Positions 10,309 through 26,322 of a DNA stretch of 35,923 bases are shown piece after piece (the first letter of the stretch is position 1; each line of letters begins with the position of its first letter). The stretch comes from a virus. Under the pieces are notes generated by a model, which saw nothing but the letters and a program-made list of their open reading frames with translations, searched no databases and was not told the origin of the DNA. The position numbers and the translations under genes were made by a program. Location of the stretch: the IMG/VR virus record IMGVR_UViG_3300019487_000019, positions 1 through 35,923 of that record. One strand, given 5' to 3'.

Positions 10309-10501
10309 GTGCATCGATAAGTTCAACACTTGGGTCGACAACCTCGATGAGGTGTGGAACGCTCTTCTGATGATTGTTGTTGGTTGTGCAATTGGATTGC
10401 TTGTCACCTGGCCAGAAACCCGACATATTGGCTGGGTGATTATTGGAATACTTGCCGTCTTTGTCGTTCGCAAACATTGGCCCTGGAGGAAGAAATCATG
10501 A
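10301..10501 (+). CDS. Small membrane protein
   Basis: 3' part of ORF 10151..10501; two hydrophobic helices. Confidence 0.6.
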   Translation: MFKCIDKFNTWVDNLDEVWNALLMIVVGCAIGLLVTWPETRHIGWVIIGILAVFVVRKHWPWRKKS

Positions 10502-11136
10502 AAATACTTGCCATCATTGCTGCTATGTTTATCTCGTTTACGTGCTCTGCTCAGTGGCCCGAACAAAGCCCTGAATTGTTTCATGCTATCAACATTGATA
10601 GCTACTCTGGTGTCAAGCTTCGCCTTGATCAGGGCGACAATCCAAATGCTGCCGACAAAGATGGATATACAGTACTGATGTATGCTGCTCGTGATGGACA
10701 GCAAGAGATCGTCCGGCTACTACTCGACCGCGGCGCAAGCGTCAACGCGGAAAATAATTTCCAAGAAACAGCCCTGCTTCTTGCTGCGTTCTTTGGTCAT
10801 CTCGAAACTGTTCAGACGTTGCTCAATAATGGTGCTGTAATCAATCGCTCCGGAAAATGGAACCCTCTCCACTATGCAGCATGGGGTGGTTGGACAACGA
10901 TTGTTCAGTATCTACTTGACCGCGGCGCAGAAGTCAATGCTCTTGCTCCGAACCAAGCAACGCCACTGATGATGGCCACACACGAGCGCAAAGGTAATGT
11001 GATTAAACAACTTGTCGCTGCTGGTGCCAACGTCAACATCAAGAATGATGCCGATGCAACTGCCCTTTCGTGGGCAAAGAAAGCGGACTATCCAGAGATT
11101 GTTGATCTGTTGGTTCAATCAGGTGCAATGGAGTGA
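10498..11136 (+). CDS. Exported ankyrin-repeat protein
   Basis: GGAGG RBS; signal peptide MKILAIIAAMFISFTCSA; about five ankyrin repeats (GYTVLMYAA, ETALLLAA, WNPLHYAA, ATPLMMA, ATALSWA; LLDRGA.VNA). Confidence 0.9.
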   Translation: MKILAIIAAMFISFTCSAQWPEQSPELFHAINIDSYSGVKLRLDQGDNPNAADKDGYTVLMYAARDGQQEIVRLLLDRGASVNAENNFQETALLLAAFFGHLETVQTLLNNGAVINRSGKWNPLHYAAWGGWTTIVQYLLDRGAEVNALAPNQATPLMMATHERKGNVIKQLVAAGANVNIKNDADATALSWAKKADYPEIVDLLVQSGAME

Positions 11137-17634: not shown

Positions 17635-18117
17635 ATGCTTACATTTCTAAAACAAGATCTAACAACCGTTGAGCGAGGCGTGATCGCTCACGGCGTCAAT
17701 TGTCAGGGTGTCATGGGTTCAGGTGTTGCACTCGCTCTTCGAAATAAATGGCCTGCTGTCTATACAAACTACCGAACAATGGTTGATGCCTCCTCAGATG
17801 AGAAGGAAAAATTACTCGGTACGTGTTCGATTGTTGCTGTTGAACGCACAAACCATTTGTATGTTGCTAATGTTTTCTCACAGGTGAACTATGGGCGCCA
17901 ACGTTATCGCTATGCCAATCCGGAGGCAATTCGGTCCGGCCTCAACTTCGTCTTTAGTTTCGCAACCGGTATCGGACTACCTGTCTACATGCCAAAGCTC
18001 GGTTGCGGCTTGGGCGGTCTCTCTTGGTATTCTGATGTGGAGCCTGTGGTGGCAGAGCTACTTGACAAACATCCAAACTTGGAAAACGTTTTCCTCTGCG
18101 AGATCTCCAATGGATAG
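17635..18117 (+). CDS. Macrodomain (Appr-1''-p processing / ADP-ribosylhydrolase-like) protein
   Basis: IAHGVNCQGVMGSGVA, VANVFSQ, MPKLGCGLGGLSW. Confidence 0.88.
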   Translation: MLTFLKQDLTTVERGVIAHGVNCQGVMGSGVALALRNKWPAVYTNYRTMVDASSDEKEKLLGTCSIVAVERTNHLYVANVFSQVNYGRQRYRYANPEAIRSGLNFVFSFATGIGLPVYMPKLGCGLGGLSWYSDVEPVVAELLDKHPNLENVFLCEISNG

Positions 18118-18503: not shown

Positions 18504-18576
18504 GGGGGTGTAGCACAATTGGGGGTGCAACTGCCTTGCACGCAGTAGGTTGCAGGTTCGAGCCCTGTCACCTCCA
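18504..18576 (+). tRNA. tRNA-Ala(UGC), no encoded CCA
   Basis: Cloverleaf: GGGGGTG/CACCTCC with G3:U70, D stem GCAC/GTGC, anticodon arm ACTGC-CTTGCAC-GCAGT, T arm GCAGG-TTCGAGC-CCTGT. Confidence 0.92.
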
Positions 18577-18583
18577 CGGTTTA

Positions 18584-18688
18584 CGGAGATTAGCGCAGCC
18601 TGGTAGCGCATCTGCTTTGGTAAATGCCTTCGTAAGAGGACATTTTCCGAGCAGAGGGTCGCAGGTTCGAATCCTGCATCTCCGACCA
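18584..18688 (+). tRNA. tRNA-Pro(UGG) with a 28-nt insertion/intron (18621-18648) in the anticodon loop
   Basis: CGGAGAT/ATCTCCG-A-CCA, D arm GCGC-AGCCTGGTA-GCGC, TCTGC-TTTGG[28 nt]GA-GCAGA, T arm GCAGG-TTCGAAT-CCTGC. Confidence 0.88.
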
Positions 18689-20520: not shown

Positions 20521-20544
20521 CTATTATTTGGCATGGAGGTCTCC

Positions 20545-21441
20545 ATGTCGCTCGTAGATACAATGTTAGATGAAATCCGCAAACGCATAAAAGCCGCCCC
20601 AGCCGGCACGCCAGCGGGTGTGCCGGGAGGGAAATTAGTTGCTCGGTCTGCCCGAGCGCTTGCTGATCACTTCGCCGGTTCTGAGGAGCCAGAAGTTGAC
20701 GACAATCCCCCGTTTCATGAATTTGACTTAGAAACTCTTCTTGCTGATCTTCATCCAGACAAACCCGAACTTGCTCAAAAGATTCAGTCCGTTTTGTCGC
20801 GCTTAGAACTCTATACGGGTCTCTCGTTTTCCCTAACAAATGGACCTTATCTTGCTGGTGGTGCTTTGCGGCAAGCTATTGAAGGTGAATTCTGCAAAAC
20901 TGACTACGATATTTTCTTTAACAGTTATGCTCAGTACGAAGCGTTTTCACAAAAACTAATGTACTTCGAACCGCAAGATCAGACGTTTGTTTCAAAACAC
21001 CCCGACCTAACCGTCGAAACCCAGACAATGTTTACAGAGAACTATAAAATGGGTGAGGAGGGAACCGATCTTATTCAATTGATTCGCGATCGATGGTATC
21101 ACAAGAACGCAAAAAGTCTAATTTCAGAATTCGATTTTACATGCTGCCAGCTTGCTACGGATGGCACAACGATCGTCGTTGGTGCACACGCAATTAATGA
21201 TATTTGCGATCGACGGCTTGTGTTTAATGCGTTTCATTCTCCCGTGAATTCAGTTGTTCGAGTGGGGAAATATAACCGATATGGGTATGTTCTAACACAC
21301 GAAGAGTCAAAGAAATTCCTCCAAAATGTTGTAGAGAATCCTGACACATTGGAGAATAGTGGATACGTTGTTGATGGAATGAGTGCAGCCGTTTCTTCGG
21401 TAAGCGCACACTTCGGCGCAGTTAAGTGTGCCAGCCTCTGA
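20545..21441 (+). CDS. Nucleotidyltransferase (poly(A) polymerase/CCA-adding head-domain-like)
   Basis: YLAGGALR, catalytic DYDIFF, IQLI, FDFTCCQ, R..KY..YGY; GGAGG RBS. Confidence 0.75.
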   Translation: MSLVDTMLDEIRKRIKAAPAGTPAGVPGGKLVARSARALADHFAGSEEPEVDDNPPFHEFDLETLLADLHPDKPELAQKIQSVLSRLELYTGLSFSLTNGPYLAGGALRQAIEGEFCKTDYDIFFNSYAQYEAFSQKLMYFEPQDQTFVSKHPDLTVETQTMFTENYKMGEEGTDLIQLIRDRWYHKNAKSLISEFDFTCCQLATDGTTIVVGAHAINDICDRRLVFNAFHSPVNSVVRVGKYNRYGYVLTHEESKKFLQNVVENPDTLENSGYVVDGMSAAVSSVSAHFGAVKCASL

Positions 21442-21822: not shown

Positions 21823-21989
21823 TACAACGAAAAATCGACAGCGAACAGGAACTAGCCGAACTCATTGAAGAGCTGGTACCAGGCGAAAACATAGAGGTTT
21901 CTAAAGAAGCCTGGGAACAACTAATCAAGAAGGGGATATTAATTCCTGTGGACGACGATGAACAAGAACAAACGGATGACAAAGAATGA
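21819..21989 (+). CDS. 56-aa acidic protein
   Basis: ATGA overlaps at both ends; MIQRKIDSEQELAELIEEL...DDDEQEQTDDKE*. Confidence 0.65.
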   Translation: MIQRKIDSEQELAELIEELVPGENIEVSKEAWEQLIKKGILIPVDDDEQEQTDDKE

Positions 21990-23032
21990 CAAAATTTCGA
22001 CACAACGATTACAGCTCACACATAGATGAAGACTTTGTTTACGATAGTGAATTCTATCCCGACGACAAAGATCTTCCAGATCCACAAATCAATCCAATTA
22101 TACCCGGAGCACAGATTGGATTAGACAAGGTTGGTGTAACGGGCGTTGATCTTCCGATGAAGTTTCTTCGACGGGACGGATCGACACAAGAACTTCACGT
22201 CAAGGCTTCATTGTATGGTTCATTGGATGATCCAAAAGCTAAGGGGTTGAACCTATCACGGTTTCCTGTGATTATGCACGAGGAGATCGCAAACCATATG
22301 TCGATCGACGGGTTGCGAAATTGCCTTGTCCGTCTTCAAAAGAAACAAGGATCAAAGCATGTATATTGCAAGCTTCGTTTCAAGTATCCGTGGGTTCAAG
22401 AAGCTCTTCGGACACGAAAAGAGCTTCCCGAAGATGCGCCAGATAAAGACGTGTTTAAGGTCGTTGAAGGCGTAAAGTTGAGCCATGAGAAAATGCTTGG
22501 ATACATTTTCTATGACTGCATTCTTGAAGGACAGCTGCATATTGACGAAATAACCAATGAGTGGAATAACCAGGTTCTCCGAGTCCCAACCTTCAAGTTC
22601 TTCCTTACGGTTGAATACATCTACTCTTCAACTTGTCCGTGTAGTTATGAGCTAGCTCAAGATGCAAAGCGTCGTCGTGGCAAGGCAGCGAATGGGCATT
22701 CACAACGATCAATTGGTCGAATTACAGTTCAGTTCAATCCGTCTGAACATATTGTGTGGGTTGAAGATATCGTTGAAATGGCTCGGCAACAAGTGCCAAC
22801 AGAAGTTGTTGTTATTTGTAAGCGACGAGACGAACAAGCGTTTGCTGAACTCAATGGTTCGAATCTATTGTTCACAGAAGATGCTTCGAGACTATTGTTT
22901 GAGGGATTGGATCAAATGTTCAAGGACGGAAAGGTTCTCGATTTCTCGATCGTCACAGAACATTTGGAATCGTTGCATCCGTGGTCCGCAACCGCGGTCG
23001 TCGCCAAGGGTATTCCGGGTGGTCTCCGATAA
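21986..23032 (+). CDS. folE2: GTP cyclohydrolase I type B (FolE2/MptA family)
   Basis: LPD.Q, LDKVGV, KGLNLSRF, STCPCS, HSQRS, KRRDEQAF, FTEDASR, ESLH. Confidence 0.88.
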   Translation: MTKFRHNDYSSHIDEDFVYDSEFYPDDKDLPDPQINPIIPGAQIGLDKVGVTGVDLPMKFLRRDGSTQELHVKASLYGSLDDPKAKGLNLSRFPVIMHEEIANHMSIDGLRNCLVRLQKKQGSKHVYCKLRFKYPWVQEALRTRKELPEDAPDKDVFKVVEGVKLSHEKMLGYIFYDCILEGQLHIDEITNEWNNQVLRVPTFKFFLTVEYIYSSTCPCSYELAQDAKRRRGKAANGHSQRSIGRITVQFNPSEHIVWVEDIVEMARQQVPTEVVVICKRRDEQAFAELNGSNLLFTEDASRLLFEGLDQMFKDGKVLDFSIVTEHLESLHPWSATAVVAKGIPGGLR

Positions 23033-23672
23033 TTGGCTCGATGTACTTGACTATTTCAAATCGGACGACTACGTTGCTATTGTTAAAAAGATAGCTGCTC
23101 GCCGTGCGAAGGGGATTATTGTTCTTCCAGAAAAGCAAAACATTTTTCGAGCGTTACAACTAACACTGTTTGATGAAGTAAAAGTTGTCATTCTTGGACA
23201 AGATCCTTATCCGACACCCAGTCATGCAATTGGTCTTGCTTTCTCGGTTCCATCACACACATATCCAACACCAAAGTCGCTTCAAAATATATTCACTGAA
23301 CTCGAAACCGATCTTGGAATAGTGCGAACGAATTGTGATTTGACGGACTGGGCCAAACAAGGCGTATTGTTGCTAAACACAACACTGACCGTTGAGCAAG
23401 GCAATCCCGGTTCCCACAAAGCATATGGTTGGACAACGCTAACGAACGAGATTATTACAAAGCTAAGCGAATACCACGACAATCTCGTGTTTATTCTTTG
23501 GGGGAGCCACGCCCAAGAGAAAATCTCACTAATTGACTCTGAAAAACACCTTATAATCAAGTCGTCGCACCCATCACCACTTGGGGCCTACCGTGGTTTC
23601 TTCGGTAGTAAACCCTTCTCACAAACCAATCAATATTTGACGAGCAAAAATCTCCCTATAATCAACTGGTGA
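23019..23672 (+). CDS. ung: Uracil-DNA glycosylase, family 1
   Basis: VKVVILGQDPY, AIGLAFSV, WAKQGVLLLN, VFILWGSHA, HPSPL; GTG start at 23019 is inferred. Confidence 0.95.
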   Translation: MVSDNWLDVLDYFKSDDYVAIVKKIAARRAKGIIVLPEKQNIFRALQLTLFDEVKVVILGQDPYPTPSHAIGLAFSVPSHTYPTPKSLQNIFTELETDLGIVRTNCDLTDWAKQGVLLLNTTLTVEQGNPGSHKAYGWTTLTNEIITKLSEYHDNLVFILWGSHAQEKISLIDSEKHLIIKSSHPSPLGAYRGFFGSKPFSQTNQYLTSKNLPIINW

Positions 23673-25000: not shown

Positions 25001-25760
25001 TTCGAACGACTTCAAGATTCATTTCAAGATACCACAACACTTCATGAATGTTTGAAACGATTCGTTTTCTCTCTTCGCCATAATAAGGTGTTGAGAGTGC
25101 ATCAATAATCTCTTTGATCTTACCTGACTGCATTGGATCAAACCAGAATAGTTTCATCACAGTAAACTTCTCTCGTTCCCACCGATCCTTTAGAGCCGAA
25201 ACACCACCGTCTTCTGTTCCAAACGTAAACACGTTTCCGGCGGGAGCGTCTGCTTCACGAATCACGTAAAACACTTTTCGCTTGACAGCTTCCTGTTGTG
25301 CTTCAACCTTTTCTACTGGCTTATTACCTAACCAATGATTCCAGCTGCGCCAACGATCATAGACAAGGTCAGGGCGAGCGGGAATGTCTTTTGGAAGGTC
25401 CTCTTTATTGTCCCTACACCAATCCATCCACTGCTTCGATGTAGCAAATTTCTTCTTGTGCGCCCAGACAATTGCCTCATCCAAAGGACGCCACTTCTTT
25501 CCTGTTTCCTGAAACTTGTTGTTAGTGCCAAGAAAATCATTCCATGTTGTCCATTCTTTGTAGACGCGGTACGGAAAGCGAGGAAGGGCTTTCGGCTTAT
25601 TGCGATCCCACCACTCAATGTATTTTCCTCGCGAAGGAATCATTTCCTCACGAATGAATTGCTTTGCTTCCTCGTACGGAAGGAAGTCGAGGTTAGGCTT
25701 TCTTCCTCTCTTCTTTCCCTTCGGAGTCGCTTCCTGTTCGTCCTGCTGTAAATCGTCCAT
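24990..25760 (-). CDS. Protein with two integrase-repeat-unit-like (INT_rpt) repeats; not an integrase
   Basis: PYEEA...LPRFP.RVYKEWTTWNDFLG and PLDEA...IPARPDLVYDRWRSWNHWLG; start 25760 inferred. Confidence 0.65.
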   Translation of the reverse strand: MDDLQQDEQEATPKGKKRGRKPNLDFLPYEEAKQFIREEMIPSRGKYIEWWDRNKPKALPRFPYRVYKEWTTWNDFLGTNNKFQETGKKWRPLDEAIVWAHKKKFATSKQWMDWCRDNKEDLPKDIPARPDLVYDRWRSWNHWLGNKPVEKVEAQQEAVKRKVFYVIREADAPAGNVFTFGTEDGGVSALKDRWEREKFTVMKLFWFDPMQSGKIKEIIDALSTPYYGEERKRIVSNIHEVLWYLEMNLEVVRTIA

Positions 25761-26322
25761 TGACAACATCCCAATCAATAATGTTCCAGATAGCTCTCAA
25801 GTATTTTTCTCGATCATTCTTATACGTAAGATAGTAGCTGTGTTCCCACAAATCAACGACCAACAAAAGCTGTCCAGAAGGCCGGTCGGCATTCGACGTT
25901 GTGATGATTTCAAGCTTATTGCTCTTCCATACAAGCCATGCCCAACCACTACCAAACTGCTTCATTGCTTCTTCATTGAATTCTTCCTCGAACGCTCCCC
26001 ACGCATCAAACTGTGAAAGCACTTGTTCGGTGAACGCATCTAGTGCACCTCGGAAATCCTTCTTTGGTGAACATAGTTGTTCCCACCAGAACTGATGGTT
26101 CCATGCTTGCATTGCTTGATTATACAGAACAGTACCCTTATCAAGCTTCGGTAGGAGTTCGTCGAGCGACTCCACTTTTGCAAAACGAGTTCCTTTGATT
26201 AGCTCGTTCGTCTTATCAAAGTAACCTTTCGTGTGCTTCCCGTAATGAACCTTGACAGTTTCCTCACTCATGTAAGGCTCGAGCTCATCATGAGCAAACT
26301 TTAGCTTTGGCACCTCACACAT
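25693..26322 (-). CDS. Fe/Mn superoxide dismutase (Fe-type signature)
   Basis: LEPYMSEET..VHYGKH..GY, NQAMQAWNHQFWW, FGSGWAWL, DLWEHSYY. Confidence 0.93.
   Translation of the reverse strand: MCEVPKLKFAHDELEPYMSEETVKVHYGKHTKGYFDKTNELIKGTRFAKVESLDELLPKLDKGTVLYNQAMQAWNHQFWWEQLCSPKKDFRGALDAFTEQVLSQFDAWGAFEEEFNEEAMKQFGSGWAWLVWKSNKLEIITTSNADRPSGQLLLVVDLWEHSYYLTYKNDREKYLRAIWNIIDWDVVNGRFTAGRTGSDSEGKEERKKA

Follow-up and report, generated by a model that had tools for sequence, protein, structure and literature searches.

Does a phage tRNA gene whose anticodon loop is broken by a 28-nt hairpin still give a working tRNA and, if it does, what takes the hairpin out? The question is raised by a tRNA-Pro(UGG) gene at positions 18584 to 18688 of the stretch of DNA analysed here (the window, 35,923 nt), which opens an IMG/VR record of 183 kb from a T4-like giant phage (58% complete according to CheckV) and makes up its first 35.9 kb. 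This record (G000 below; other G numbers designate the other phage records that we compared) belongs to a contig of 355,604 bp deposited elsewhere, of which 172 kb lie outside the record. To our knowledge, the textbook view is that tRNA introns of bacteria and phages are self-splicing group I introns, and that tRNA splicing by proteins belongs to archaea and eukaryotes. The features on which the argument turns are these:

17635..18117, plus strand: macro-domain gene, upstream marker of the conserved locus (Pfam PF01661; PHROG 335)
18504..18577, plus strand: tRNA-Ala(UGC), without encoded CCA (ARAGORN; Rfam, 18504-18576, 63.9 bits)
18584..18620, plus strand: exon 1 of tRNA-Pro(UGG), tRNA positions 1-36, ending in U34 G35 G36 (Rfam alignment; uninterrupted orthologues)
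18619..18648, plus strand: helix of 13 positions across both junctions (fold; covariance model R1, 36 bits)
18621..18648, plus strand: 28-nt hairpin insert, the candidate mini-intron (gap against uninterrupted orthologues; fold; family covariation)
18649..18688, plus strand: exon 2 of tRNA-Pro, tRNA positions 37-76, from G37 to the encoded CCA (Rfam; ARAGORN after removal of the insert)

There is little doubt about the identity of the gene. The sequence-only reading had called it a tRNA-Pro(UGG) with CCA, and this is borne out by an Rfam match (RF00005, 18584-18685) of 57 bits (gathering score 29) that covers all 71 model positions, with all four stems intact and 32 nt in place of the 4 loop positions expected. 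The exons carry bacterial features (C1-G72, A73, an encoded CCA, a loop UUUGG...GA), and after removal of 18621-18648 default ARAGORN recognises a tRNA-Pro(tgg) of 77 nt that has C1-G72, A73, G37 and an encoded CCA, that is, a cloverleaf with the bacterial set of tRNA-Pro features, G35 and G36 included. From the identity elements (C1-G72/A73 here, A1-U72/G73 in the tRNA-Trp genes described below) we judge the host to be bacterial. The tRNA-Ala ends 6 nt upstream of the tRNA-Pro, and the two probably share one dimeric precursor.

With the insert in place the gene is invisible to default ARAGORN, which calls only the tRNA-Ala. The intron mode of the same program, suggested earlier as a check, does find the gene but mis-parses its anticodon and intron as Thr(ggt) with a 26-nt intron. 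We dropped this parse, as well as Pro(agg) for a tRNA-Trp gene of G001 and Gly(tcc) for a gene of G006 that is probably a tRNA-Val, and used boundaries drawn from uninterrupted homologues. A further intron-mode call in the window (22742-22877, 'tRNA-Tyr' with a 40-nt intron) is a false positive, which lies inside the FolE2 coding region and has no Rfam support. As bacterial-mode tRNA finders miss such genes or give them a wrong anticodon, inventories of phage tRNAs are biased.

The boundaries of the insert come from relatives found via the major capsid protein. At the same locus of five of them (G001, G002, G004, G007 and G008) the tRNA-Pro is uninterrupted, in a conserved order (matches by tblastn included) of macro-domain gene, tRNA-Ala(UGC), tRNA-Pro(UGG), coiled-coil gene and GTP cyclohydrolase gene. 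The gap in the alignment is exactly 18621-18648, between nucleotides 36 and 37, and other placements fail to give the orthologous loop. Because uninterrupted orthologues (those of G007, G008 and G001) have the same anticodon stem with the loop TTTGGGA, the boundaries are exact to the base, and the earlier proposal of a 28-nt insert at 36/37, whose removal restores G37, holds. In all relatives, whether or not the tRNA has the insert, the macro-domain gene keeps its place just before the tRNA pair. Its homologues go under the name 'O-acetyl-ADP-ribose deacetylase (regulator of RNase III)' at JGI and are of the YmdB family, a naming that is suggestive in view of the RNase III idea discussed below.

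One may ask whether the insert is simply an artefact of assembly or sequencing. Over 1014 bp around the gene, the window shows 100% identity to four other public assemblies, which come from different archives:

NCBI GCA_973787055.1 (the 355,604-bp contig)
JGI 3300019458
ENA ERZ27251176
Logan SRR7811943

The insert is thus not an assembly error and, since homologous inserts are also present in other phages, we consider the probability of an artefact to be practically nil. The insertion in the Pro gene is limited to a single phage population and seems to be recent. When JGI metagenomes were scanned with the exons as anchors, no diverged tRNA-Pro orthologue with an insert was detected (the scan gave chance matches and one att-like partial duplicate, nothing else); scans of viral contigs with the single products of the two neighbouring genes brought up no relatives, and a first exon-anchored viral scan found nothing. 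The idea that G015, one of the phages introduced below, is the missing half of the G000 phage was rejected, as the RNA ligase P0281 of the latter has no match in G015.

What does the insert look like as an RNA? In the computed fold of insert and anticodon arm, a GUAA loop (+12 to +15) is flanked by positions +1 to +11, which lie opposite +26 to +16, and the final CC (+27/+28) pairs with G36 and G35, so that these two anticodon bases are paired inside the insert helix. This agrees with what had been described from the letters alone, both for the fold as a whole and for the masking of the anticodon GG by the 3' CC of the insert. The energy is -17.1 kcal/mol as against -7.1 +/- 2.2 for shuffled sequences (z = -4.5; 0 of 200 shuffles as good), and the best and near-best folds all give a near-continuous helix with one 1-nt bulge and two 1x1 mismatches, the mismatched positions of the G000 helix being +1 and +7. 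Together with the anticodon stem this helix is about 20 positions long, and across it the 5' junction (18620|18621) faces the 3' junction (18648|18649) with an offset of 2 bp that leaves 3' overhangs. As to the GNRA loop noted previously, GUAA fits the definition in the G000 copy, but the relatives have other loops and the motif is not conserved.

Could this be one of the known classes of tRNA intron? The introns of archaeal and eukaryotic tRNAs are cut by EndA/TSEN and joined by RtcB or Trl1, and their hallmark is the bulge-helix-bulge, with two 3-nt bulges around a 4-bp helix. Like them, the insert is short, non-catalytic, located in the anticodon loop and paired with the anticodon through its 3' part, and like them it would need an endonuclease and a ligase. 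In contrast to them, it does not lie at 37/38, EndA and RtcB were not found in the phages searched, and the ends expected here are 3'-OH and 5'-phosphate instead of cyclic phosphate and 5'-OH. No clear bulge-helix-bulge had been seen by eye, rightly so: the helix is nearly continuous, there are no two 3-nt bulges, and no register with 3-nt bulges can be drawn at either 36/37 or 37/38, which rules out an intron of this class. Group I introns, which are ribozymes of roughly 200 nt or more with a catalytic core P3-P9, also occur in the anticodon loop of bacterial-type tRNAs and sporadically among relatives, but a plain hairpin of 28 nt is not one of them. Rfam detects no intron family at gathering score in the window, where only the two tRNAs match, and no terminator-like site is called on the insert. 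Since 28 nt are far too few for a ribozyme of any known class, the insert has to be removed by proteins, if it is removed.

The most informative evidence comes from other genes. It had been suggested to search the rest of the genome for further intron-bearing tRNAs and to look at relatives for conservation of the insert structure. Both were found in other phages, in tRNA-Trp genes of G001, G014 and G015, which together with the tRNA-Pro of G000 make up the family as we define it here. In G001, a 102-nt gene flagged by the intron mode of ARAGORN is a tRNA-Trp(CCA) with 28 additional nucleotides after C35; its identity comes from alignment to the Trp tRNAs of G002 and G006, an alignment that also refutes a reading as Arg(CCU) with the insert at 36/37. 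The two other copies were found by an exon-anchored scan of IMG/VR: the tRNA-Trp(CCA) of G014 (a complete genome of 368 kb) is split after C35 by a 29-nt insert, the same sequence occurring in a fragment, G016, and that of G015 is split after C35 by 28 nt. In all four members the last two bases of exon 1 pair with the last two bases of the insert, 11 stacked positions follow, and a loop of 4-5 nt closes the hairpin; the junctions face each other with an offset of two exon-insert pairs and a 2-nt 3' overhang, and the 5' junction is always 11 positions away from the loop. In the Pro gene, whose exon 1 ends in GG, the insert ends in CC, and in the Trp genes, whose exon 1 ends in CC, it ends in GG; the U.G pair at +9 is invariant. 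The G000 insert has every one of these traits (28-29 nt, 2-nt exon pairing, 11 positions, 4-5-nt loop, U.G at +9).

Among the three members of equal length, the helix is 89.7% paired, with compensatory changes in 6 of 13 pairs and a covariation score of 0.667 compared with 0.32 for shuffles, none of 500 of which reaches it; control registers obtained by sliding pair at 33-52%. As the four members are homologous, their common geometry is close to a single observation, and we think that the case from geometry gains mainly from the CC/GG switch between Pro and Trp hosts. The inserts of G000 and G015 also have an apical motif in common (TGCCTTC-NNAA-GAGG), which was found in no other tRNA among the IMG/VR matches; it has at least 120 matches in bacterial genomes, none of them in a tRNA among the matches listed. 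In related genomes (about 2 Mb in all) the end motif is confined to the two tRNA inserts, and covariance model R1 gave no further convincing copy outside anticodon loops, scans that rule out a repeated genomic hairpin or terminator (a lead from the end-motif scan, L240, turned out to be a spacer with a T-arm-like piece). The likeness of the Pro and Trp inserts, combined with the existence of uninterrupted Pro orthologues, suggests that the element moved recently into the Pro gene.

Are the interrupted genes functional? When the inserts are removed, ARAGORN calls Trp(cca) in all three Trp genes, with encoded CCA. Among the three genes the exons have diverged, with stem changes that compensate each other, while the hairpin has kept its shape; this would not be expected of an abandoned gene. 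The complete genome G001 contains 60 tRNA genes detected by ARAGORN, for all amino acids but Trp, and its Trp gene is the interrupted one; an uninterrupted Trp tRNA is detected by ARAGORN neither in G001 nor in the complete genome G014 (where ARAGORN detects no Phe tRNA either), and every Trp tRNA gene found in these two genomes is interrupted. On the other hand, an interrupted gene is not always needed, because G015 has two plain Trp genes beside it, and the argument for function is weaker for the Pro gene of G000 than for the Trp genes. The 172 kb of contig outside the record could hold further tRNA-Pro genes.

Two other interrupted genes may be mentioned here. G014 carries a second Trp(CCA)-like gene (G014:C1:109626-109749, within L397) with a different insert of 51 nt after C32. 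In G006, a record that is 52% complete, the only Val tRNA found (G006:C1:26466-26567, minus strand, within L183; Val(UAC) by alignment and A73, the gene labelled Gly(tcc) by ARAGORN) has another hairpin, of 29 nt, after U34, whose best fold gives a stagger of 1 nt, not 2.

If the hairpin is removed, the enzymes should be in the phage or in its host. The sequence-only reading proposed splicing encoded by the phage, and this is half supported: RNA ligases of the 3'-OH/5'-phosphate type are present in the phages, but the cutting side of such a system was not found there. Neither RtcB (PF01139) nor RNase III (PF14622) was found in G000-G010 or G014 (complete genomes G001, G009 and G014 included), nor EndA (PF01974) in G000-G010 (complete genomes G001 and G009 included), so that the enzyme set of the bulge-helix-bulge pathway (EndA/TSEN plus RtcB or Trl1) is missing from the phage genomes searched. 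With none of these enzymes detected in the phages searched, the cut is probably made by an enzyme from the host. Ligases of PF09414 or PF09511 occur in every record with a family member (PF09414 in most records), and T4 Rnl1-type ligases in G001, G005, G006, G010 and G014, the proteins of G001 and G006 being 65% identical. The 355,604-bp contig that holds the tRNA-Pro locus encodes P0281, a protein of 377 residues that matches TIGR02306 (DRB0094/Rnl5 type) with 237 bits for a cutoff of 151 and whose nearest solved relative is the Naegleria RNA ligase; no Rnl1 homologue on this contig appears among the best 120 matches.

A possible mechanism can be put together as follows. The precursor would have the 13-position helix, made up of the insert and the two final anticodon bases, on top of the anticodon stem. 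The hairpin would then be released, with 3'-OH and 5'-phosphate ends left behind, by RNase III of the host or by an enzyme that cuts with the same geometry, and an ATP-dependent RNA ligase of the phage would join the halves in the anticodon loop to give a normal tRNA-Pro of 77 nt; the candidate for this sealing step is P0281 in the G000 phage, with T4 Rnl1 as a further candidate in relatives. Bacterial RNase III makes opposed cuts on a helix that leave 2-nt 3' overhangs, with 3'-OH and 5'-phosphate ends. In the predicted folds of all four members there is such a substrate as far as geometry goes, a helix of about one turn with the 2-nt 3' offset, and since ends of the RNase III type are direct substrates of phage ATP-dependent ligases, a route through host RNase III and a phage ligase is favoured. 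The structure thus predicts one cut after 18620 and another after 18648, staggered so as to leave a 2-nt 3' overhang. The introns would also be able to move between tRNA genes (from Trp to Pro), their last two bases being re-tuned to the new exon.

How far can this be believed? Among the earlier readings, that of an intron gains most support, from the orthologues, from the Trp hairpin family and from the sole Trp genes, and on these comparisons we lean slightly towards the view that the RNA of the insert is cut and rejoined at all. The fuller statement, a working tRNA-Pro(UGG) with a hairpin mini-intron spliced by proteins, with host RNase III as the probable cutting enzyme and a phage ligase to seal the halves, seems to us evenly balanced between acceptance and doubt, and removal by RNase III plus a phage ligase, taken as the particular route, should be seen as tentative. 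It is possible, though rather doubtful at present, that giant phages have a third route of tRNA splicing that has yet to be described, with mobile 28-nt hairpins cut by host RNase III and rejoined by phage ligases.

Splicing could also be the work of other enzymes, a different nuclease making the cut and a kinase-phosphatase and a ligase healing and sealing the ends, as in T4 anticodon-loop repair. Such a scenario would make good use of the Rnl1-type ligases listed above, the known task of which is to seal broken anticodon loops; it accommodates the Val-tRNA hairpin of G006, which lacks a clean 2-nt stagger, and most genes of these phages are without assigned function. We nevertheless hold it to be unlikely, as it leaves unexplained the conserved 2-bp exon-insert pairing and the constant 11 positions from cut to loop, and no candidate nuclease has been identified.

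Two more explanations do without splicing altogether. According to one of them, the tRNA-Pro gene is dead, a small hairpin having recently entered one of several redundant copies that has yet to decay. The insertion is known from one phage population, with all assemblies identical, redundancy is plausible because relatives carry up to five tRNA-Pro(UGG) genes, and G015 retains plain Trp genes next to its interrupted one. This is difficult to reconcile with the Trp bodies of G001, G014 and G015, which are perfect cloverleaves despite their diverged exons and keep the hairpin pairing by compensation, with the absence of other Trp genes from two complete genomes, and with the presence of the element only in anticodon loops across about 2 Mb of related genomes; we consider it improbable. 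According to the other, the RNA works unspliced, either as a look-alike with a buried anticodon that is set against host anticodon nucleases or tRNA-modifying toxins, or as a regulated reserve of precursor. G35 and G36 are indeed paired in the helix, the locus sits among likely counter-defence genes (the macro-domain gene and a Gad2-like nucleotidyltransferase gene), and phage tRNAs are known to counter defences that target tRNAs (PMC10264068, PMC11555353). Yet a decoy needs no G37, no exact 7-nt loop upon removal of the insert and no symmetric junctions on a helix, Trp would be the one amino acid left without a decoder in genomes whose tRNA genes serve the other 19, and no nuclease specific for tRNA-Pro or tRNA-Trp has been linked to these hosts, so that we give this explanation little credence.

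Returning to splicing by RNase III and a ligase, each half has a partial precedent. In some bacteria, the intervening sequences of 23S rRNA are extra hairpins that are cut out by RNase III. These resemble the present case in being extra hairpins of a stable RNA with an RNase III cut (proposed, here) at the base, but the rRNA fragments stay unjoined, whereas a tRNA cut in its anticodon loop must be religated to decode. In T4 infection, PrrC cuts tRNA-Lys in the anticodon loop, and Pnkp and Rnl1 restore it. There too a phage RNA ligase seals a break in an anticodon loop (G001, G006 and G014 have Rnl1 homologues), but it repairs damage to a host tRNA from which no sequence is removed, while here ligation would be routine maturation of the phage's own tRNA.

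The only published phage cases that we found are the tRNA introns of Lak megaphages, called 'enigmatic' by Devoto et al. (2019, Nat Microbiol, PMC6784885, Table S6). Like the members of the family described here, they are inserts in the anticodon region of tRNAs of very large phages; related phages have the same gene without the insert, Rfam has no match for it, and no mechanism of removal is known. Two entries of Table S6 (PMC6784885) are 79 and 93 nt long and lie in Phe and Tyr genes, as against 28 nt here; these two inserts were placed just after nucleotide 37 by tRNAscan in eukaryote mode, whereas ours lie at 36/37 (Pro) and 35/36 (Trp); and at least one Lak insert is tRNA-shaped, in contrast to a plain hairpin with a covarying helix that spans both junctions. 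The G000 insert is thus of the Lak type in being non-ribozyme, in the anticodon region and absent in relatives, and differs in size and shape. Our searches of full-text literature found no account of tRNA splicing by RNase III plus ligase or of hairpin introns in phage tRNAs.

What the present family adds to the known phage tRNA introns is exact boundaries, a covarying structure, occurrence in other genomes and a specific mechanism that can be tested, so that the 'enigmatic' introns of 2019 become a question for the bench. That sole Trp tRNA genes are split by covarying hairpins would imply that tRNAs are cut and rejoined by proteins in infected bacteria, and it suggests a routine role for the RNA ligases of large phages.

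A few further observations were made on the way. G001 and G006 have homologous tRNA-like genes of about 130 nt (G001:C1:1586-1717 and G006:C1:37023-37151) whose acceptor and T arms are good and which share a conserved insert of 50-60 nt; ARAGORN labels them 'SeC(tca)' with intron. A short contig, L255 (JACYYJ010089353.1), contains at 1374-1434 a 3' part of tRNA-Pro identical to exon 2 of G000. In front of it stands an incomplete second copy of the anticodon arm in the same direction, which resembles an integration junction, and the contig might point to the host or to an integrative element. In the window, the nucleotidyltransferase mentioned above (20533-21441, 302 residues) has a precomputed match to PF26128 (Gad2, anti-Gabija) in the identical NCBI contig, no match in our own Pfam scan and a weak PHROGs match to nucleotidyltransferases. 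Other genes of the window encode an ankyrin-repeat protein (10354-11136), a type I GTP cyclohydrolase FolE2 (21986-23032), overlapped in another frame by an ORF of the uracil-DNA-glycosylase superfamily (22662-23672), and an Fe/Mn superoxide dismutase (25693-26322); near 15.7-16.7 kb, genes of the ribosomal protein L33 and Fe-S biogenesis families have also been called on the identical NCBI contig. Finally, G001, G002, G006, G009 and G014 each have one or two tRNAs with a CUA anticodon ('Pyl' for ARAGORN), which are possible amber suppressors and a hint of TAG recoding in this phage group.
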